A stretch of DNA of 14,670 bases, from the NCBI GenBank assembly GCA_036170915.1, contig JAVHQC010000013.1:67246-81915 (forward strand), read 5' to 3'. Under the pieces are notes generated by a model. The model was not told the origin of the DNA. It ran no database searches and was given only the letters and a program-made list of their open reading frames with translations. Numbering within the stretch: position 1 is the stretch's first letter; the number at the start of each line of letters is the position of its first letter. Positions 195-14,670 of the stretch are shown here, piece by piece. The position numbers were made by a program, and so were the translations under genes. The DNA comes from Cyanobacteria bacterium auto_48_18 (GTDB taxonomy: Bacteria > Cyanobacteriota > Vampirovibrionia > Obscuribacterales > Obscuribacteraceae).

Positions 195-221
195 TCTTTG
201 TTAAAGGGCTTTAAAAAGTAC

Positions 222-563
222 ATGGCTCGTCATAACAAGTTGTTGGAATCGCCACCGTTTGCAGTAGAGCAGGCTCTTGTTCAACTGGGAGATAACCTCC
301 GGCTGGCTAGAATTCGGCGCAGTATGACTATCGCCGATGCTGCAGAACGCATCGGCACAGGGCCTCGAGCGGTGATGGATGCCGAGAAAGGCAAACCGGC
401 AACCGGACTGGTGGTGTATGCAGCTTTGCTCTGGCTCTACAATCAACTTGACCAGTTGGGAGATGTGGCTGACCCATCTAAAGACAAGGAAGGTTTGATA
501 CTAGATTCGGTGAACAAGCGCCAGCGTGTGCGCAGAAATCGTGGTATGGATAATGACTTCTAA
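222..563 (+). CDS. XRE-family HTH transcriptional regulator / HipB-like antitoxin
   Basis: Cro/C1-type HTH signature LGDNLRLARIRRSMTIADAAERIGTGPRAVMDAEKG. The stop overlaps the start of the downstream HipA gene by 11 nt. ATG at 222 (MARHNK...) is preferred over the ORF-track TTG at 198. Confidence 0.85.
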   Translation: MARHNKLLESPPFAVEQALVQLGDNLRLARIRRSMTIADAAERIGTGPRAVMDAEKGKPATGLVVYAALLWLYNQLDQLGDVADPSKDKEGLILDSVNKRQRVRRNRGMDNDF

Positions 564-1818
564 AGAATCAAAATCTGAATGTTTTGTCTACATCACACTG
601 CCACAAGCAACTACTAGTGTCACTGCCGGTCGCTTTGAAATTACAAAGGACAAGCTCGGTAATAGCACCGGTAAATTCATTTACGGAAAAACATATTTAT
701 CACGCAGCGATGCAGTAGAAATAGACCCTGTTGAACTAAAGTTAGGCGAAAATTTATTCCGCACTGCACGCCTTGACGGGGTGTTCAGCTCACTTCGAGA
801 CGCTGGTCCCGATTTTTGGGGACGCTACGTTATTGAACGGCATTCAGGAAAAATAGCGCTGAGTGAAATCGATTACCTTCTGGAATCGCCCGATGATCGA
901 GCAGGGGCACTCGGATTTGGATTGAATCAAAAACCTCCGTCACCAATGAAAAAATATAATAAAACCCTTGATCTGGTGCGCCTTCAGCAGGCTGCAGACA
1001 AATTGCTCAGAGTAGAAGATGTGAGTACAGAGCTTGACTCCATTCAAGTTCAGGAATTGCTACTCCTTCAAACGTCGATGGGTGGAGCCAGGCCCAAGTC
1101 GGTTGTTGAGGATGAATCCGGTCTTTGGGTGGCCAAATTTTCGCGACCAGATGACCGCTGGAATAATCCGTTGGTGGAGCATGCAATGCTTGTACTCGCG
1201 CGGCAATGTGGAATTGATGCAGCGATGAGTCGTGTAGAAAATATTGGTGGCAAAGAAGTACTGCTGGTGCAAAGATTCGATCGCAGGAAAACCAGTCAAG
1301 GTTATGTGCGAGCAAGAATGGTTAGCGGCTTAACGCTGCTTCGAGCAGACGAATCGCCATTGCGGCGCGAAAGGTGGTCATACGTGTTGATGGCAGAAGA
1401 GTTACGCAGAGTGGTGGCAGAGCCCAAGCGAGATGCAGCAGAACTGTTTCGTCGTATTTGTTTTAACTCGCTTATTTCAAATATTGATGACCATCCTCGT
1501 AACCATGCACTTCTGGCCTTTGACAAAAGTTGGAAATTATCGCCCGCTTACGATCTGACACCCTCGTTGGCGATATCGCAAGAGCGGCGCGATCTGGCCT
1601 TAGAGTGCGGAAATCTTGGACGTTATGCCAACGCTAAAAATCTACTGAGCCAGTGCTCACGGTTTTTACTTGCAGAGGCTGATGCAAACCAAATCATTTC
1701 AAATATGGCTGCCCACGTCAAAGCAAACTGGCATAGTGTCGCGCGTTCACAAGGCGTAAGCGAGCGAGACGCACAAACCATCAAAGGAGCTTTCAATTAT
1801 CCTGGCTTTTCATTATAG
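553..1818 (+). CDS. hipA: Type II toxin-antitoxin HipA-family Ser/Thr kinase toxin
   Basis: HipA motifs: N-terminal region LRDAGPDFWGR, Gly-rich loop TSMGGARPK, VAKF, LLVQRFDR, catalytic DDHPRNH and LSPAYDL. Start placed at ATG 553 (MTSKES), which overlaps the antitoxin stop; the ORF track starts at 526. Confidence 0.92.
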   Translation: MTSKESKSECFVYITLPQATTSVTAGRFEITKDKLGNSTGKFIYGKTYLSRSDAVEIDPVELKLGENLFRTARLDGVFSSLRDAGPDFWGRYVIERHSGKIALSEIDYLLESPDDRAGALGFGLNQKPPSPMKKYNKTLDLVRLQQAADKLLRVEDVSTELDSIQVQELLLLQTSMGGARPKSVVEDESGLWVAKFSRPDDRWNNPLVEHAMLVLARQCGIDAAMSRVENIGGKEVLLVQRFDRRKTSQGYVRARMVSGLTLLRADESPLRRERWSYVLMAEELRRVVAEPKRDAAELFRRICFNSLISNIDDHPRNHALLAFDKSWKLSPAYDLTPSLAISQERRDLALECGNLGRYANAKNLLSQCSRFLLAEADANQIISNMAAHVKANWHSVARSQGVSERDAQTIKGAFNYPGFSL

Positions 1819-6517: not shown

Positions 6518-8059
6518 TTAATTTGCCTCCGGTTTTTCCTGCATAGTGGAAGTGACAAGCAACGCAATCAAATCTGCGAGCGGTTCGATGTTTTGATTTA
6601 CGCTGGCCTGCTCAAGAGCAGCTAAATAATCATCACGGCGTTCCACCGGTATCACTGTCCAGGGATAGCCCGCAGAGGCAAGCATTACATTCATGAGAAA
6701 CCGCCCTGTGCGCCCGTTTCCATCCATATACGGATGTATATAGACGAACATGAAATGACCAAGTACCACTCGCACCGCTGGCTCTTTTTCTTCGCGCAAA
6801 AGATCAAATAGCGCTGGCATCAACTCTCTAATAACATCCCTATTTGGTGGCACATGCTTAGAGTGGCGAATGTAAACTTGATCAGTCCGATAGCCAGCTA
6901 AATCAGAAGGTCTAAGAAGCCCGATTTGAACGCTCGGAGCAAAGAGTTCGCGGTACCATGTGCCATGATCATCATCTGCAACTTCTCCGGCGTTGTCGCC
7001 TTGGAGTACCCGCGCTAGACTCTCTCTGACAGCCTGGTGCGCCTGCCAGTATCCTCGCGCAGCCAAAGTATTTTTTTTCTCCCGATCACTTTCATCGATA
7101 TCTGGATTCCAATTTCCTTTTTTGACTTTTTCAATAAGCTCTCGACTAACTTTGTAGCCTTCGATAGATAATGAGTGGTATGCGTCGGTAACGTAGTTAT
7201 CTTGCACCATTTTTAGATAGGCTTTGTGGTTTTTGGGAAGTTCATTAGCAAGAGGGAACCGCTGCAGGACCGGCTCGCGCATGGTTTGCCACATCAGTTT
7301 GATTCGGCCGACATATGGGGATCGTTCTCTTTTTTTGAAAAAAATTGGTGTGGGCTCTGTAAAGGGATCCTCTTCTCGGCAGTCGTAGCCAGCCGACTTC
7401 ATTGTGCTCAGAATGTCGTCAGCCAGCCGCGTTCGTCCAATGTTTCTAAAAGCGCCGGCAAGTCGCCCCGCCACAATAGAATGGCCTCCATTTAGCAATA
7501 CAGCCAACAAGTCAGACGCATTTGAAAACGAGGAAAGTGCTGCGCGCGCGTCTGTGGGATTTTGACGAAAAGTATTGCTAGAGCAAAACATTAGGGCTGT
7601 CGGCAGCGAATACACATTGAGACCCTCAACTCTCTGAATGTGTTCTTTGGCGACAGTAGTCAGTCGAACATCTAGAATCGAAGTACGGTGCAATAAAGGT
7701 GTTGTGTTGTTTTTTGCTTCTGGAGACCGCACAACAAGTTGAGCTGGAACAACTTTATTGCCCACCTGGAGCAATAAAGATTGTTCGGGTGATATGCACC
7801 ACTCATCGCCAAAACGCTCGTCCAAATACTGCGCAGCAAAAGGCCAAAACGATGCAAACCAGGCTGTACTCTCACCTGCTGGCTGATCGGGGCGAGTTGG
7901 AATGTACCAACCTTTCATTACCTCTTGCAAAAAGCCGTTCGCCAGCAACCGTTCACGATCAGCTCGTAGTAAATCACTGCTTCGTAAGGCGACTTTCCCT
8001 GCAGCCTGGAAAGCTTCCAAAACCTCTAGTGACTTAGCAAGCTTTTCCGCGGGAGTCAA
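6518..8059 (-). CDS. Fic-family protein (class II, autoinhibited) with an N-terminal wHTH/AbiEi-like region
   Basis: Canonical Fic motif HPYMDGNGRTGR (6701-6736) and inhibitory motif SLSIEG, matching (S/T)xxxE(G/N), at 7157-7174. TTG start with AAAGG upstream. Confidence 0.9.
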   Translation of the reverse strand: MTPAEKLAKSLEVLEAFQAAGKVALRSSDLLRADRERLLANGFLQEVMKGWYIPTRPDQPAGESTAWFASFWPFAAQYLDERFGDEWCISPEQSLLLQVGNKVVPAQLVVRSPEAKNNTTPLLHRTSILDVRLTTVAKEHIQRVEGLNVYSLPTALMFCSSNTFRQNPTDARAALSSFSNASDLLAVLLNGGHSIVAGRLAGAFRNIGRTRLADDILSTMKSAGYDCREEDPFTEPTPIFFKKRERSPYVGRIKLMWQTMREPVLQRFPLANELPKNHKAYLKMVQDNYVTDAYHSLSIEGYKVSRELIEKVKKGNWNPDIDESDREKKNTLAARGYWQAHQAVRESLARVLQGDNAGEVADDDHGTWYRELFAPSVQIGLLRPSDLAGYRTDQVYIRHSKHVPPNRDVIRELMPALFDLLREEKEPAVRVVLGHFMFVYIHPYMDGNGRTGRFLMNVMLASAGYPWTVIPVERRDDYLAALEQASVNQNIEPLADLIALLVTSTMQEKPEAN

Positions 8060-8334: not shown

Positions 8335-11300
8335 ATGCATCAACCTAAATCAGCATCCGTACCTGATCTGTCCCAATCTCAGTGTGCCGAAGAGAAAATA
8401 CACATTCCTGGTGCTATCCAACCTCATGGCGTTCTTATCGCTGTCATTGAGCTAACCCTGTCGATTGTTCAAGTAAGCGAATCTGCATTCACCATATTTG
8501 GTATCGCATCCCAAGACTTGATTGGCCAACCGCTCAAGTCACTCATCGGTAGCGAGCAGGAAGCTGAGCTATCGCGACGGCTTTTATCCGACATAGTTCT
8601 CCTGAATCCGCTGCGTCTCGCTGTTAACTGCAAGAGTGGTAAAACTGAGTTTGAGGCAGTGGCTCATCGATCGGATGGTCTTCTCATTATTGAGTTTGAA
8701 GAAGCCGCATGTCTTCAGCCAGAACAATCTCTTGATTTTTTCCGTACAAGTAACAAGGCAATCGCGCAAGTACTGGCGTGCACCAGCCGACAACAGCTGC
8801 TTAAATCAGTTGCAGATTTTGTGCGCACGTTGACCGGTTTCGACCGCATTATGATCTATTTGTTTGACACAGAGTGGAATGGAACAGTATTGGCCGAAAG
8901 CAAAGCAGCTGAAGCAAAAAGTTATCTCGGCTTGAAGTTTCCCGCTGGTGACATTCCCGCTCAGGCACGGGAGCTTTATAAGCGTAATCGCTTGCGGCTA
9001 CTGGTAGATGTTAATGCTGTGCCCTCGCCTTTGCATCCTTCTAACAACCCGCTCACTTCTTCAGCACTCGACCTGAGCGGATCGATTTTGCGGGCAATGT
9101 CGCCTGTGCATGTCGAGTATTTAAAAAACATGGAAGTGGCTGCATCGATGTCACTTTCATTAATCAGCAATGGTGAGTTGCGAGGACTGATCGCCTGTCA
9201 TCACACTAGTGCCAAATTTGTAGATTATCGCGTCAGGCAGGCTTGCGATTTCCTCGCCCAATTGGTCTCTCTGCAAATCGCTGCCATAGAAGAGCGCGAA
9301 ACATTTAAGAAATTAGCAGAGCTCAAAGACGCGCGCAATGACTTGCTTTTGCATGTTTCTGACCAGGTCGATTTACCTCTGGCAATCGCCGGCTCTGGCA
9401 GGCTATTGCAAATAGTTGGGGCCAGAGGTGCGGCGGTGGTTTGGAATGAGCGATGTTTTCTGGTTGGAAAAACTCCAGATCAGCGACAAATCGCGGGGCT
9501 CGTTGCCGACCTGGCAGATACTAGTTTACCGGTGTTCGTCAGTGACAACACATCAAAACACTTACCGTCTGCCCAATCTGTCGCAAGTTCTGCAAGCGGC
9601 ATGCTGGCGATTCGCATAGCGACAAGCGGTTCAAAATGGTTGTTATGGTTTCGTCCAGAACAATTAGATGAAGTGAGTTGGGCCGGCAAACAGGAGGAAC
9701 CTGGCGACGCCGGAATGCATCTACATCCGCGCAAGTCTTTTGCGCTCTGGAAAGAAAGGGCGATCGGCAAGTCGGTGCCCTGGTTGAGCTGCGAAGTGCA
9801 AAGTGCTCTCGAATTGCGAACAGATATTTTGGAGATAACACTTTCGATTTTAGAGAAAAAGCGTGCCACTGATTTAGAAAGACAAGTTAAAGAATCAGAT
9901 TTACTTTCACAAGAACTGCTTCTGGCGCGCGATGCGGCTCGGCAAGCGTCGCAACAAAAAACTGAAATGGTCTCGGTGGTGAGTCATGACTTGAGAGCGC
10001 CGCTGACTTCCATCAGAGGGGCGCTGTCTCTTCTCGACAGCGGTGTCTGTGATGCGCCTGAGGCTGCGGAGCTTGTAACGATAGCCTTCACCAGCTGTGA
10101 CTATTTACTTAATTTGATTAACAATCTGTTGAATCTCGACACCATCGAGTCTGGCGGCATTACCATTGAAAAACTCGAAATTTCTACTAGCAAACTAATT
10201 GACGACGCCTTTCAACTTGTTCGCGCCTCTGCCGAATCACAGGGCATTACGCTAGTAGCAGAAGTTGAATCAGTGACAGTCATAGCAGACAAAGAGCGAT
10301 TACTCCAAGTTCTTGTTAATTTGATCTCCAACGCTATTAAGTTCTCACCTGCACAATCACAAATTGTTGTGTCCGGTCAATCAAGCCGTGCAGGCACCAC
10401 CATTAGGGTCACAGATCATGGCCGCGGAATTCCTCTCGAGTTCAGACAGTCAATTTTTGAAAAGTTTAAACAGGTTGAGGACTCGGACCGCAGCCAGAAG
10501 GGAGGCGCCGGTTTAGGACTTGCAATTTGTAAAACTATTGTCGAGGCGCATGGTGGTTCTATCGGAGTCGAGAGCGAAGTGGACAAGGGCAGTACGTTCT
10601 GGTTCACTTTACCAACCGACGAGTTTTTAAGTATCAGTGGTGAAGCTGCCGCATCTTCTGATGAGAGTAGTTTACGTGCTAAATTGGCGGTTTCCGAACA
10701 GACGCTTTCTGAACGCACTCGTGAGCGCGACGACTTCGAACTGAGGCTCATAGAGAGTGATCGCGAACTGGCAGCTGTCCACTCGGAATTTGCTGAAACT
10801 ACCCGCAAGCGCGCTGCCAATTTGGCAATGCTGGCAGTAAATGTATCGCCGGTAGATACTGAACTGAATGAGAGCAGTGAAAGTTTAACTGAACCTACAG
10901 AAAATCATGCACTATCGAAGCCTGAGCTGAAAGCTATTCTGCATGAGCGGGCATGCTTTGTGGCCGCTTTTAATGATTTTAGAGACCCTATTACAAGTGC
11001 CACTCAGTTGTTGGAATATATTGCCGCCGGAAAAGTCTCACGAAAACGGCAGGCCGAAATATTGACGCAGATAATTGAGGCAAATAAGAGCATGCTCTCT
11101 GGAGCTGATCATTTAGCAGAAGTCGCCTTAGAGTTGTCACTAAGGACACGCCAGTTGGCGGAACGAACAGAAGAACTTGCTGATTCTAATGCTGAATTAA
11201 AAGCCAGGATGCAACAGCGAGAAGATTTTGTGGCGGCCTTGACTCATGATTTGAAAAACCCGCTCATTGGCGCCACTAAAATTCTAGAGCTTATTGCTGC

Positions 11301-11745
11301 CGGGTCATTGCGTGAACGGCAAGATGAGCAAGACAAGATCTTGAATCTAGTGATTGAATCAAACAAGAGCATGCTTCGAATGATATGGAACATGCTAGAT
11401 GTTTATCGGCAAGAATCGGGCTCTCTTATACCAGTCATTGAATCGGTTGATGTGTCAGATCTCTTGAACCAGTGCTTACAAGAGTTTGCTTTCAGCATCC
11501 AAGATAAAAAACTGAAACTAATTCTTGATACATCTGCTGAACTTCCGTCGATTCAGACCGACAGAATTTTGTTACGAAGAGTTTTGTCTAATTTATTAGA
11601 CAACGCTGTGAAGTTTTCGCCGAAAGGTGGTGAACTGACTGTAGGCGGTACTTTTAATGAAGAACAGTTGCTCATATCTGTTAAGGACGCTGGACCAGGC
11701 ATGTCAGAAACGCAAATGGAACAAATATCTCAGCGTTTCTGGTAA
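8335..11745 (+). CDS. bphP: Bacteriophytochrome histidine kinase (PAS-GAF-PHY-HisKA-HATPase) extended by a second, truncated kinase module
   Basis: N-terminal Cys17 in CAEEKIHIPGAIQPHG; GAF motifs GFDRIMIY, FPAGDIPAQARELY and SPVHVEYLKNM; PHY motifs WFRPE, WAG and HPRKSF. First kinase: SHDLRAPL (H551), NAIKFS, DHGRGI, GAGLGL. Second kinase: THDLKNPL (H971), NAVKFS, DAGPGM. GAGG RBS at 8327-8330. Confidence 0.93.
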   Translation: MHQPKSASVPDLSQSQCAEEKIHIPGAIQPHGVLIAVIELTLSIVQVSESAFTIFGIASQDLIGQPLKSLIGSEQEAELSRRLLSDIVLLNPLRLAVNCKSGKTEFEAVAHRSDGLLIIEFEEAACLQPEQSLDFFRTSNKAIAQVLACTSRQQLLKSVADFVRTLTGFDRIMIYLFDTEWNGTVLAESKAAEAKSYLGLKFPAGDIPAQARELYKRNRLRLLVDVNAVPSPLHPSNNPLTSSALDLSGSILRAMSPVHVEYLKNMEVAASMSLSLISNGELRGLIACHHTSAKFVDYRVRQACDFLAQLVSLQIAAIEERETFKKLAELKDARNDLLLHVSDQVDLPLAIAGSGRLLQIVGARGAAVVWNERCFLVGKTPDQRQIAGLVADLADTSLPVFVSDNTSKHLPSAQSVASSASGMLAIRIATSGSKWLLWFRPEQLDEVSWAGKQEEPGDAGMHLHPRKSFALWKERAIGKSVPWLSCEVQSALELRTDILEITLSILEKKRATDLERQVKESDLLSQELLLARDAARQASQQKTEMVSVVSHDLRAPLTSIRGALSLLDSGVCDAPEAAELVTIAFTSCDYLLNLINNLLNLDTIESGGITIEKLEISTSKLIDDAFQLVRASAESQGITLVAEVESVTVIADKERLLQVLVNLISNAIKFSPAQSQIVVSGQSSRAGTTIRVTDHGRGIPLEFRQSIFEKFKQVEDSDRSQKGGAGLGLAICKTIVEAHGGSIGVESEVDKGSTFWFTLPTDEFLSISGEAAASSDESSLRAKLAVSEQTLSERTRERDDFELRLIESDRELAAVHSEFAETTRKRAANLAMLAVNVSPVDTELNESSESLTEPTENHALSKPELKAILHERACFVAAFNDFRDPITSATQLLEYIAAGKVSRKRQAEILTQIIEANKSMLSGADHLAEVALELSLRTRQLAERTEELADSNAELKARMQQREDFVAALTHDLKNPLIGATKILELIAAGSLRERQDEQDKILNLVIESNKSMLRMIWNMLDVYRQESGSLIPVIESVDVSDLLNQCLQEFAFSIQDKKLKLILDTSAELPSIQTDRILLRRVLSNLLDNAVKFSPKGGELTVGGTFNEEQLLISVKDAGPGMSETQMEQISQRFW

Positions 11746-11907
11746 ACAAAACACGGTCGAGAGAAAGGTATAGGCACAGGTTTGGGCTTGTTTTCGTCGA
11801 AAACTATTATGGCCGCACTTGGTGGCCGAATAGAGTGCGCGAGCACCGAGAATGGTGGCACTACATTCACTGTCATCATGCAATTAAATACACTGCTCAA
11901 TGGCTGA
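11746..11907 (+). pseudogene. In-frame C-terminal remnant of the second HATPase domain, lying beyond a premature TAA
   Basis: Reading on in frame past TAA 11743-11745 gives TKHGREKGIGTGLGLFSSKTIMAALGGRIECASTENGGTTFTVIMQLNTLLNG* (53 aa), which contains the G2 box GTGLGL and the GTTF strand. Confidence 0.9.
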
Positions 11908-12014
11908 ATGTAAAAATCCGGGAATTTGCAAAGTTAGTAACTATAATTTGATTATGACGGTCGACTTTGAATCGTCTCGAACTTCTTTGTGTTTCATTTC
12001 TGAGGTTTTAGTTA

Positions 12015-12809
12015 GTGCGCATTTTAGGTGTTGATTTGGCCTGGGGTGAAGGCACTGCAAACAAGCAACCCAATGAAACTGGCGTAATAGCAATTGAAAG
12101 CAATGGAAAAATTCTTGATGCCGGTTGGACCACCGGAGTCGATGCGACATTCAATTGGATAAATAAGTGGAGCGGTTCCGACGCCCTGGCAATGATTGAT
12201 GCACCATTGGTAGTGAATAACGACAGCGGTCAGCGCTTGTGTGAAAAACAAGTTGGACAAAGATATTATCCATGGAAAATAGCGGCAAACAGTTCGAATC
12301 GAAACTTAAAATGCCTGGCTGGTGTAAGTCTAAGAGAACGTCTTGAGAGAGAAAATTCTTGGAGTTATGACACCGGCCACAGTGGCCCTCCATCAGACGG
12401 TCTTCATTTATACGAAGTTTATCCCTATACAACCATTGTGGGCATCGAAGAGCTAAATTACGGTGTTCGGCCAGTGTACAAACGCAAGCCAAAAAAGATG
12501 GATGTCGCCGATTTTAAGCTGGTCAGAGGAGCCGCCTGTCAGTTGTTACTGCGTCAATTTTCTGAGCTAAAAATTGGCAACGCAAAAATAGACTTTAACT
12601 CTCATCAGACAACTCGCGAGTTATTGAATTACAGCGATTTTTCAACCTTGAGCGCTAAAGAATATAAGCATAGAGAAGATCTCATTGACGCTATTATTTG
12701 CGCCTGGACAGGTCTGCTTTGGATGAATTTTGGATTTGATCGCTGCCAGGTATTGGGCGATGCAGAAGCTACAATAATTGCACCGGCCAGACCCTCACCG
12801 CGACGGTGA
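12015..12809 (+). CDS. DUF429 family predicted nuclease (RNase H fold)
   Basis: Motifs ILGVDLAW, IDAPL, R.CE, EVYP and EDLIDAIICA are typical of DUF429/COG4328. GTG start with GAGG at 12002-12005. Confidence 0.85.
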   Translation: MRILGVDLAWGEGTANKQPNETGVIAIESNGKILDAGWTTGVDATFNWINKWSGSDALAMIDAPLVVNNDSGQRLCEKQVGQRYYPWKIAANSSNRNLKCLAGVSLRERLERENSWSYDTGHSGPPSDGLHLYEVYPYTTIVGIEELNYGVRPVYKRKPKKMDVADFKLVRGAACQLLLRQFSELKIGNAKIDFNSHQTTRELLNYSDFSTLSAKEYKHREDLIDAIICAWTGLLWMNFGFDRCQVLGDAEATIIAPARPSPRR

Positions 12810-12858
12810 TTTCCCTTTTCTTCTTGTTCAAAGAGCTGGGCATCGCATAAAAGGCCTT

Positions 12859-12989
12859 TAGTTGCCTAAACGATACTTAGTTGCCTTAAATGTCGCATAG
12901 TTGCCTAAATTGACAAAATAGTTGCCTAGTGTGTGCATTCTTGCCTAAATAGGGTATATGATTGCCTAGAGTGGCATATTTTTGCCGAC
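12859..12989 (+). repeat. Seven phased direct repeats (consensus TAGTTGCCTA, 19-21 bp period) upstream of the HTH-Fic gene; iteron- or operator-like array
   Basis: TTGCC cores at 12862, 12881, 12901, 12922, 12941, 12962 and 12982 (periods 19, 20, 21, 19, 21, 20). The first four are TAGTTGCCT and the last three degenerate towards the gene. A perfect TTGACA lies within the array at 12910-12915. Confidence 0.9.
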
Positions 12990-13022
12990 AGATTAACTGA
13001 AGCTCTATAGGATAGGCTGATT

Positions 13023-14393
13023 GTGGCTAGGCAGATACCAGAAGAAGATCTGGAAGGTATTGAGGCGATACTCAAGGCTCATCCTGCTGGGGCCGACCTA
13101 AAGTTTATAAGCGCTGCCATGGGAGGCAATATCCCACACCGGACGCTGCAATATCGCTTGCGCTATCTTGCCGAGCGGGGAAGAGTCGTCACTGAAGGCC
13201 GACTTCGTGGCATGAAATATCTTCCGGCATCCGCTGTCGATACGGCGACAGAAGCAGAATCGTTGGCATTGTCGCGGGCCGCTCACGACATTCAGAAAAA
13301 TGTTTCGCGTCCCGTACTTTCACGGAAGATTGTTGGCTACAACAGGGACTTTTTGGATTCTTATAGACCGAACAAAAGTGCGTATTTTTCGGAAGCTGAG
13401 CGCAGACGACTTCATGAAATTGGATCAGTGCAAACTGGACACCTGCCGGCAGGCACATATGCGCGAAACATTTTGGATCGATTACTCATTGATCTTTCAT
13501 GGAATTCAAGCCGCTTAGAAGGCAGTACTTACAGCATTCTGGACACTAGACGATTGATCGCCTTCGGCAAGGAGGCACAGGGAAAAGATCGTGTTGAAGC
13601 GCAGATGATTCTGAACCACAAGGATGCAATTGAATTCCTTGTTGATAACGCTGACGAGATCGGATTCAACCGGTCTACCGTTCGGAACTTGCACGGTGTT
13701 TTGGCAAACAACCTTTTGCCGGATCCGCAAGCGGCTGGCCGTCTTCGTCAAATCGAGGTCGAAATCGGGCAATCTACCTTTCAACCGCTTGTGGTGCCAC
13801 AGCTTATCGAAGAATGTTTCAACCAAATTTTAGATACAGCAATGGCTATCTCTGATCCTTTTGAGCAGTCGTTCTTTGTCATGGTTCATTTGCCTTACCT
13901 TCAGCCCTTCGAGGACGTGAACAAACGAGTTTCACGCCTGGCAGCCAACATTCCACTAATTAAGGCTAATCTAATTCCGCTTACGTTCGTTGATGTGCCA
14001 AAAGACCAATACGTGCAGGCAATTCTTGGGGTATACGAGCTGAACAAAGTAGAACTACTCAGAGACATTTATCTCTGGGCTTATAAGCGCTCAGCTGAAC
14101 GCTATGCCGCAGTTCGCCAGTCACTCGGAGAACCCGATCCGTTTCGTCTCAAGCATCGAAATGCCCTGCGCGAAGTCGTCCGCACTATCGTAAAAGAGCA
14201 GTTCGATCGCCCAACAGCTTTCAGATATTTAGAGACATGGACAATAGAAAACTTAGTAGAAGACGACCGCGATGAGTTCCAACGCGTCGCTGAAGATGAG
14301 ATTCTGGCTCTACATGAAGGTAATTTTGCTCGCTATCAAGTGCGCTCTTCGGAGTTTGAGGCATGGCAAAAAGTATGGGAGCGGAAATCGTAG
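13023..14393 (+). CDS. Fic-family protein with N-terminal winged-HTH and a non-canonical active site
   Basis: N-terminal wHTH-like segment (IPHRTLQYRLRYLAERGRV...G..RGMKY), inhibitory motif SSRLEG (13506-13523), AGRLRQ, and Fic-loop variant QPFEDVNKRVSR (13902-13937). GTG start. Confidence 0.88.
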   Translation: MARQIPEEDLEGIEAILKAHPAGADLKFISAAMGGNIPHRTLQYRLRYLAERGRVVTEGRLRGMKYLPASAVDTATEAESLALSRAAHDIQKNVSRPVLSRKIVGYNRDFLDSYRPNKSAYFSEAERRRLHEIGSVQTGHLPAGTYARNILDRLLIDLSWNSSRLEGSTYSILDTRRLIAFGKEAQGKDRVEAQMILNHKDAIEFLVDNADEIGFNRSTVRNLHGVLANNLLPDPQAAGRLRQIEVEIGQSTFQPLVVPQLIEECFNQILDTAMAISDPFEQSFFVMVHLPYLQPFEDVNKRVSRLAANIPLIKANLIPLTFVDVPKDQYVQAILGVYELNKVELLRDIYLWAYKRSAERYAAVRQSLGEPDPFRLKHRNALREVVRTIVKEQFDRPTAFRYLETWTIENLVEDDRDEFQRVAEDEILALHEGNFARYQVRSSEFEAWQKVWERKS

Positions 14394-14546
14394 AGTCGAC
14401 TTCTCACCATGGTGTTTGCGCGCAGTTATTACCGCTGTGGAGCTCAAGATTCTCGTGCCAATATAGTGCTACCCTAAAAACAGCGCCGATTTGAGAACAT
14501 CTCAGCTTGCAGGCGCTTTATAAATTTAGCTAAAGCGAGGACCACC

Positions 14547-14670
14547 ATGCAACCACCAGCTCATCGTCCACCCACGCCCGAACAACTCGAAGCCTGGCGA
14601 CTCACCAGCCTCGAACGTGTGCGTCCGGTCCTCCCCGTGGTAGCGGAAATTTCGGCATTTTGGTTTCATT
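14547..14670 (+). CDS. 5' part of a hypothetical protein running off the window (MQPPAHRPPTPEQLEAWRLTSLERVRPVLPVVAEISAFWFH...)
   Basis: GAGG RBS at 14537-14540, 6 nt before the ATG at 14547. The frame stays open to the window end. Too short to assign a function. Confidence 0.55.
   Translation, partial: MQPPAHRPPTPEQLEAWRLTSLERVRPVLPVVAEISAFWFH

Follow-up and report, generated by a model that had tools for sequence, protein, structure and literature searches.

Autoregulation through repeats is seen in AbiE and type II toxin–antitoxin systems, mobile stress or defence modules in which a winged-helix protein represses the promoter that its gene is transcribed from. These systems comprise two genes, including a separate antitoxin, whereas the module described below is a single gene of putative toxicity. 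Among Fic proteins, CccR (YPK_0951) of Yersinia pseudotuberculosis, in which Fic is joined to a helix-turn-helix (HTH), represses its own promoter and binds two inverted 10-bp repeats that are 26 bp apart and lie near −35 and −10 (PMC9755527). Our locus resembles the published description of CccR in that a Fic domain is fused to an HTH and, in its family, repeated boxes lie near −35 and −10, and its gene may likewise be repressed by its own product (PMC9755527). As described, CccR has a C-terminal HTH, a catalytic histidine (H192) and a site made of two inverted repeats, whereas our protein has an N-terminal winged helix and a glutamine in place of the histidine, and its putative site consists of seven direct boxes with a 20-bp period (PMC9755527). 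The CccR-type combination of a C-terminal HTH and inverted repeats 26 bp apart is absent here. Since autorepression by an HTH-fused Fic protein is already known from CccR, the surprise in proposing it for this locus is limited.

Two other groups are useful for comparison. Doc clade D2 of Khater and Mohanty, a Gln-substituted Fic clade with the motif Qx[F/Y]x[D/E][G/V]NKR, is given as of unknown function and was flagged in 2015 as possibly so (PMC4454073). The protein studied here fits this motif, with Gln for His, and its assignment to D2 was made by the motif match. D2 proteins are described as usually single-domain, whereas our protein and most of its homologues carry a winged helix, and the portions of that account dealing with the clade mention neither a winged helix nor upstream repeats (PMC4454073). 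In CbFic2 of Coxiella burnetii, DNA binding affects the Fic enzyme through the HTH (PMC10628234). This protein is similar to ours in being Class II, with an inhibitory helix and an HTH of the winged-helix class, but its HTH is C-terminal, its motif is the canonical HPFDDGNGRIGR, its DNA binding was to random DNA and the relevant sections of the report describe no operator (PMC10628234). A search of the open-access literature found no account of an array operator or of regulation in the Gln-Fic family, and no later study of the Gln-substituted clade.

The Fic protein and its surroundings

The window, by which we mean the whole 14,670-nucleotide stretch of DNA that was analysed, contains the following genes and coding features of interest:

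12015..12809, same strand as the Fic gene: DUF429 gene (Pfam)
13023..14393, + strand: winged-HTH (wHTH)-Fic gene, 456 aa, GTG start (Pfam, predicted structure)
13041..13226, + strand: N-terminal winged helix-turn-helix, approximately residues 7–68 (predicted structure, fold and Pfam comparisons)
13137..13175, + strand: predicted recognition helix, residues 39–51, HRTLQYRLRYLAE; covariation of residue 40 with base 4 of the box and of residue 44 with base 2
13506..13523, + strand: inhibitory-helix-type motif SSRLEG; E166 present in 205/205 homologues
13902..13937, + strand: non-canonical Fic motif QPFEDVNKRVSR; Gln294 replaces the catalytic His, as in 204/205 homologues

The protein belongs to the Fic/Doc family, matching PF02661 at 34.1 bits against a cut-off of 24. 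Its AlphaFold model (mean pLDDT 85.7) has three helices and a beta hairpin over residues 7–68, followed by the Fido fold, and Foldseek places the Fic domain closest to FICD-type structures (E 2.4e-8). Sequence identity to structure 7xux, which we take to be CccR, is 15%. Modelled alone, the N-terminal domain (pLDDT 76) gives its best Z, 10.3, to TtgV (2xrn; rmsd 2.0, 64 residues aligned), a score tied with those of many wHTH proteins. Chains of Z-alpha, a domain that binds Z-DNA of alternating purines and pyrimidines, are among the ties (Z 10.1–10.2), and boxes such as TTGCCT and TGGCCG are not alternating purine–pyrimidine. In homologues, the N-terminal domain matches the Pfam families HTH_20, Penicillinase_R and their relatives.

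The canonical AMPylating motif, HxFx(D/E)GNGRxxR with its catalytic His, does not describe QPFEDVNKRVSR; Arg305 is nevertheless present in 205/205 homologues and Lys301 in 203/205. Class II Fic proteins are defined in part by an inhibitory helix N-terminal to the core, and a motif of the form (S/T)xxxE(G/N) was found in that position, where SSRLEG aligns with the inhibitory Glu of FICD. Our guess is that the Gln-substituted Fic domain switches DNA binding on or off by binding a nucleotide or by oligomerising. The NCBIfam models gave no match to the protein. Matches to the PADLOC models PDC-S04 and SoFic (best 56 bits) span the Fic core only and were not taken as a sign of a defence role.

The gene content of the window suggests an accessory island with many toxin–antitoxin-type genes. 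It carries an HTH and HipA-like kinase pair at 198–1818 (+) and a second, unrelated Fic gene at 6518–8059 (−), which encodes 513 aa and has the canonical His motif. The DUF429 protein matches the PADLOC candidate PDC-S44 at 123 bits. A bacteriophytochrome-type kinase (8335–11888, +) combines PAS–GAF–PHY with two HisKA/HATPase modules; its final ATPase domain is interrupted by an in-frame stop at 11743–11745, beyond which the frame stays open to 11888. The related locus L112 has a sense codon in place of the stop, which is either a nonsense change or an assembly error. Downstream of the Fic gene, a SAM_alpha (SAM-II type) riboswitch-like match at 14473–14550 (+) covers the full model length at 30.7 bits (gathering threshold 36; E 2.3e-5). 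It directly precedes an ORF that starts at 14547 and runs off the contig end (41 residues, no Pfam match). The SAM_alpha family was named for the Alphaproteobacteria, which makes a copy in this lineage worth recording.

Array architecture and inheritance

The elements upstream of the Fic gene are these:

12857..12991, + strand: seven units of about 20 bp, each with a TTGCC(T) box; candidate Fic-gene operator (repeat count; homology to L082 from 12858)
12862..12867, + strand: box 1, TTGCCT
12881..12886, + strand: box 2, TTGCCT
12901..12906, + strand: box 3, TTGCCT
12922..12927, + strand: box 4, TTGCCT
12941..12946, + strand: box 5, TTGCCT
12962..12967, + strand: box 6, TTGCCT
12982..12987, + strand: box 7, TTGCCG, degenerate; 41 bp ahead of the start codon (−41; about −37 for the last direct box in the family)
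12957..12962, + strand: TATGAT, the top −10-like hexamer (5/6), with a putative promoter role; TATAAT at the same register in L082–L084, L115 and L002
13009..13016, + strand: putative Shine–Dalgarno-like AGGATAGG (sequence)

The original prediction described seven TTGCC-core repeats, 19–21 bp apart and ending about 35 bp before the GTG, and this description was borne out. The seven cores start at 12862, 12881, 12901, 12922, 12941, 12962 and 12982, with steps of 19, 20, 21, 19, 21 and 20, and the GTG at 13023 is 36 bp past the end of the last core. Other parts of it had to be revised. The period is 20.0 bp on average and not 21 bp (it is exactly 20 bp in L082 and L084), and with 10.5 bp per helical turn this mean makes the boxes drift out of line with one helix face by about 6 bp in six steps, contrary to the helical phasing first proposed. 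The units are not all copies of one sequence, since the exact TAGTTGCCTA is present in only 3/7, and what had been read as variable linkers share the consensus AAAGT-GGyAy-ATAr across 33 units from five genomes. In those units the five core bases are conserved in 32–33/33, whereas most linker bases reach about 40–75%. Decay towards the gene holds for unit 7 with its TTGCCG, but with a box PWM built from four relatives unit 6 still reaches 18.5 bits, the top unit having 18.8.

The array is the only place in the 4.94-Mb genome where TTGCCTA is found at least three times inside 140 bp. The same PWM finds 804 genome positions of at least 10 bits, and a phased chain of strong matches at the array locus only; elsewhere there are isolated high scorers and just two weak phased pairs, which bears on the question of a regulon. 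A Logan contig, probably from the source run, is identical to the window over 12600–13300. All seven boxes are direct, with zero full inverted boxes. Read as TTGCC-N6-GGCA, the 33 units have G24, G17, C14 and A22 at bases 11–14, which is suggestive of a palindromic unit, although descent from the family's TGTG/−10 unit would also explain these bases.

Relatives of this locus show which gene the array belongs to, DUF429 or Fic. The nearest named relatives are Obscuribacterales MAGs. In a genome of the same genus (G232, locus L112), 82% identity to the window extends over 10486–12819, DUF429 included, and beyond the equivalent of 12819 lies unrelated DNA with neither array nor Fic. In L082 the complementary segment is found: 84% identity covers window positions 12858–14387, that is, from array start through gene end, and the Fic proteins are 85% identical. 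TTGCCT arrays are also present in L083, L084, L095 and L115. A tblastn search of DUF429 against loci L001–L110 matched only the window's own locus, and DUF429 is found in 2/104 family genomes. Among the upstream neighbours of 63 homologues, which are mutually unrelated, DUF429 was found 0 times at E<=1e-8, a borderline threshold at which the window's own copy scores only 4.5e-9. Because DUF429 exists without the array in L112, the array exists without DUF429 in relatives and the upstream neighbours are unrelated, the array and the Fic gene are co-inherited as a one-gene module. A tie between array and DUF429 was ruled out, as each occurs without the other in relatives.

This one-gene module is patchily distributed. 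The Fic gene was found in 15/96 other genomes of its family, homologues are spread over many bacterial phyla and 27 plasmid records carry one. Such mobility, together with unrelated upstream neighbours and an iteron-like 20-bp period with AT-rich linkers, would suit replication-origin iterons or a mobile-element end read by some other protein. We regard this as very improbable. The ten window proteins scanned include no replication initiator or transposase family and hence no cognate Rep gene beside the array, and the gene's other end shows no repeat enrichment, the count there (17/177) being at background as opposed to what a two-ended element would give. The box sequence also tracks the helix of the Fic protein, as described below.

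The position of the array between co-oriented DUF429 and Fic genes allows a further possibility, namely that it is transcribed as a repeat RNA serving as a type III-like antitoxin for Fic or as short guides, made of repeats and spacers, for the nuclease-like DUF429 protein. Type III toxin–antitoxin RNAs are structured repeats of the ToxI/CptI/TenpI type. No such RNA was found by Rfam, where the array stayed without a match even at a threshold as loose as E 5, or by the fold test, in which the array's z-score was +0.48. No terminator-like site separates the array from the Fic gene, the sole one (12795–12809) being upstream of the array, and the gene downstream is a Fic gene where a type III system would have an endoribonuclease toxin. 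A CRISPR-like arrangement calls for unique spacers and a linked nuclease, but the linkers share one consensus and DUF429 separates from the array, as L112 and the relatives show. In addition, the majority of boxes coincide with the predicted promoter or precede it, and inverted boxes are present in 109/114 loci of the main clade of homologues. Repeat RNA, one of the alternatives first put forward, thus has very little probability left.

Promoters, copy number and proposed autorepression across homologues

Genomes, metagenomes and plasmids supplied the homologue loci, along with one viral contig (of two scans of viral contigs, the first gave 1 locus and the second none). A match was found at 269 loci, of which 241 were usable and 187 less than 90% identical. 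The 28 loci dropped comprised 14 in which no winged helix was detected, most of them truncated or frameshifted, 7 with an internal stop, 3 with a short upstream region, 3 with no start and 1 with a short protein. Boxes were scored as at least four copies of an 8-mer, with one mismatch and on either strand, within −150 to −1. By this measure 171/187 non-redundant homologues have an array, compared with 10–13% in controls (17/177 downstream, 23/175 at −400 to −251 and 18/187 in dinucleotide shuffles), and the expectation that arrays would be conserved upstream of homologues was upheld. Of 591 same-strand spacings, 313 fall at 19–22 bp and 42 at 38–43 bp. Two homologues with altered helices, L208 and L282, have no boxes adjoining the start; in L208 a repeat of roughly 21 bp, now decayed and lying at about −300 to −190, resembles the window-clade linker without a box. 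A subfamily of about 350 aa (L097–L110, L286–L288) shares the Gln motif and the winged helix and has just 2–4 boxes of different sequence, often one inverted and two direct.

In the main clade, the boxes are interleaved with a sigma-70-type promoter (−35 TTGAtt, 17 bp, −10 TTTAAT). In order, the consensus has a box, TTGAtt, a second box and TGn-TTTAAT, with which a third box overlaps, followed by an inverted box and the ribosome site, so that one box precedes the −35, one sits in the spacer and one lies across the −10 and start site. Both hexamers reach at least 4/6 in 36/78 anchored main-clade loci, against 0/78 when the test was shifted one unit upstream. At least one inverted box is present in 109/114 of these loci and in none of six rows of the TTGCCT clade, to which the window belongs. 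In the window, each unit closes with a −10-like hexamer overlapping the box, and the final base of TATGAT is the opening T of box 6, just as the family −10 ends on the last direct box; no −35 above 2/6 was found for it at 16–18 bp. The TTGACA to which the original prediction had drawn attention is indeed present, at 12910–12915. It has no −10 partner at 16–18 bp, which ruled it out as a promoter −35, and it does not recur at the equivalent register in L082–L084 and L115.

Taken together, these observations make it probable that the array is a multi-site operator, which the N-terminal winged helix of the Fic protein would bind to repress its own gene. One winged helix would occupy each box, and the occupied boxes would block RNA polymerase, so that the gene would repress itself; this negative feedback would keep a possibly toxic or signalling Fic domain scarce. 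The operator model is built on the co-inheritance of array and Fic gene, the overlap of boxes and promoter across the family, the covariation of box and helix and the winged-helix fold. Its first version also had an iteron-like character, cooperative binding along one face of the DNA and an emphasis on TTGACA, none of which gained support. Several observations run against it: the window array has no recognisable −35, L095 has a broken gene and yet one of the longest arrays (13), intact boxes persist at the locus L006/L197 although its protein no longer has the winged helix, and the TTGCCT change occurred with an unchanged helix. If correct, the operator link would give an unstudied Fic subfamily a testable function and a direct assay.

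In the window's lineage, tandem copies of a −10-plus-box unit seem to have taken the place of the ancestral cassette of 3–4 boxes, and the longer arrays among relatives contain chains of 4–15 units. L088 and L089 each have 15 units and L095 has 13, all in near-perfect repeats of 20–21 bp; L095 also shows an apparent three-unit higher-order repeat, and its Fic frame is broken by a stop near residue 162. The form of these three arrays suggests ongoing slippage or unequal recombination. Additional copies might make repression tighter or sequester protein, and a number of them may be neutral. Arrays of up to 13–15 copies exceed the need for promoter occlusion, and this raises the possibility that the boxes are bound mainly as a scaffold or sink, with phased DNA oligomerising the Fic domains and so switching their activity, or titrating the protein, and with repression secondary or absent. 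A precedent exists in CbFic2, the activity of which is reported to be stimulated by DNA of about 20 bp via HTH-dependent dimerisation, but the assays of that protein used random DNA, its HTH is C-terminal and it has the canonical His (PMC10628234). Since the main-clade boxes sit exactly around −35 and −10, which is the geometry of a repressor, we consider a scaffold improbable.

Covariation of the boxes with the recognition helix

If the winged helix reads the boxes, the two might be expected to change together, and the proposal that they covary was supported, even though independent contrasts are few. Helices of the form RTLQ[Y/F/H] pair with the box TTGCG(C/T), RxLQR with TGGCGC or TGTCGC, R[S/T]VRRW with TGGCCG, RTL[S/N]RW with TGGCTG and RTLRFW with TTGCCG. 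In addition, [P/S/T]T[V/I]WR pairs with TGAAAC, xTLNRD with TGATA and a KR pair in the helix with TGAGCT, while Lys40 pairs with TGTCC in three separate lineages. Among the 170/190 long homologues in which boxes were callable, box base 2 is G with Arg44 in 44/45 and T with any other residue in 125/125, the discordant locus being L252. Column 44 is the top predictor of base 2 among all 456, with 1 error against 14 for the next. The calls came from a third box caller; two earlier ones, which called 132/187 (with mis-framing of palindromes) and 116/190, gave the same residue-44 trend.

In trees built from only the Fic core, the residue-44/base-2 trait switches 6–7 times, including within shallow clades (L020/L029 versus L138; L005/L047/L290 versus L065/L190; also L259 versus L255). 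Independent contrasts on well-supported branches were all concordant and non-significant, at 4 (p=0.125), 3 (p=0.25) and 5 (p=0.0625). For base 4, C goes with R or K at residue 40, with agreement in 200/201 rows after 4/205 were dropped, and column 40 ties with two Fic-core columns. Box classes were set post hoc and 33 rows of the residue-40 set were hand-framed, with a TG start as the frame for most of the distant ones, which makes this comparison partly circular. A frame-free test avoids both post hoc classes and hand framing. In 111 thinned rows, with core identity removed, the top 7 of 355 six-residue segments for shared repeated 6-mers all lie in residues 38–49, where r is 0.13–0.22; elsewhere the mean is 0.01 (sd 0.05, best 0.126), and the best value in the downstream control is 0.095. 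The pairs are non-independent, and the test was therefore used for ranking only.

The window's own clade has the box TTGCCT, yet its helix core, RTLQYRL, is that of relatives with TTGCGC. In the sister rows L002 and L114, TTGCGC and TTGCCT boxes are mixed. Elsewhere in the wHTH, M64 is found in 6/6 clade members versus 0/118 other rows and F28 in 6/6 versus 2/118, and S30 and K27 are likewise peculiar to the clade. Residues of this type, which arose once, could explain the new box. A change of box under the same helix is also what might be seen if the array were a relic, expanded by neutral slippage, with TTGCCT poorly read or only the last two or three copies of importance. The homology of entire units, linkers included, would fit a relic, as would a copy number of 4–15, the near-perfect tandems of L088 and L089 and the long array before the broken L095 gene. 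Selection on every box, on the other hand, is expected to give the strong conservation of the core relative to the linker described above, and the clade-specific M64 and F28 could account for the new box. A relic therefore seems to us unlikely, a shade more so than a scaffold.

An operator read by the winged helix remains the preferred explanation, and it can be extended tentatively to the whole group. On this extension, which we hold to be speculative and more doubtful than the operator itself, Gln-Fic proteins of Doc clade D2 would be widespread one-gene switches in which a nucleotide- or stress-sensing Fic domain assembles along operators phased at 20 bp, with a code of residue 44/base 2 and residue 40/base 4 that has repeatedly re-evolved and a copy number of 4–15 that tunes the window lineage. 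An apparent recognition code has uses of its own. Cognate helix–box pairs can be read from single loci in many phyla and on plasmids, and so provide a clean natural data set for protein–DNA recognition. If the code is true, the D2 winged helices amount to a natural library of orthogonal repressor–operator pairs.

In the Rhodothermales rows L043 and L229, Arg40 has been lost and the proximal boxes are altered, a pattern that could reflect a switch of specificity or decay once binding was lost. Within 200 bp upstream in L043/L227 and L050/L228, the distal boxes are the ancestral TTGCGC and the four proximal ones are TTGTTC or TTGTCC. The helix of these proteins has changed to TTLRYRL, and the arrays are apparently in mid-transition.
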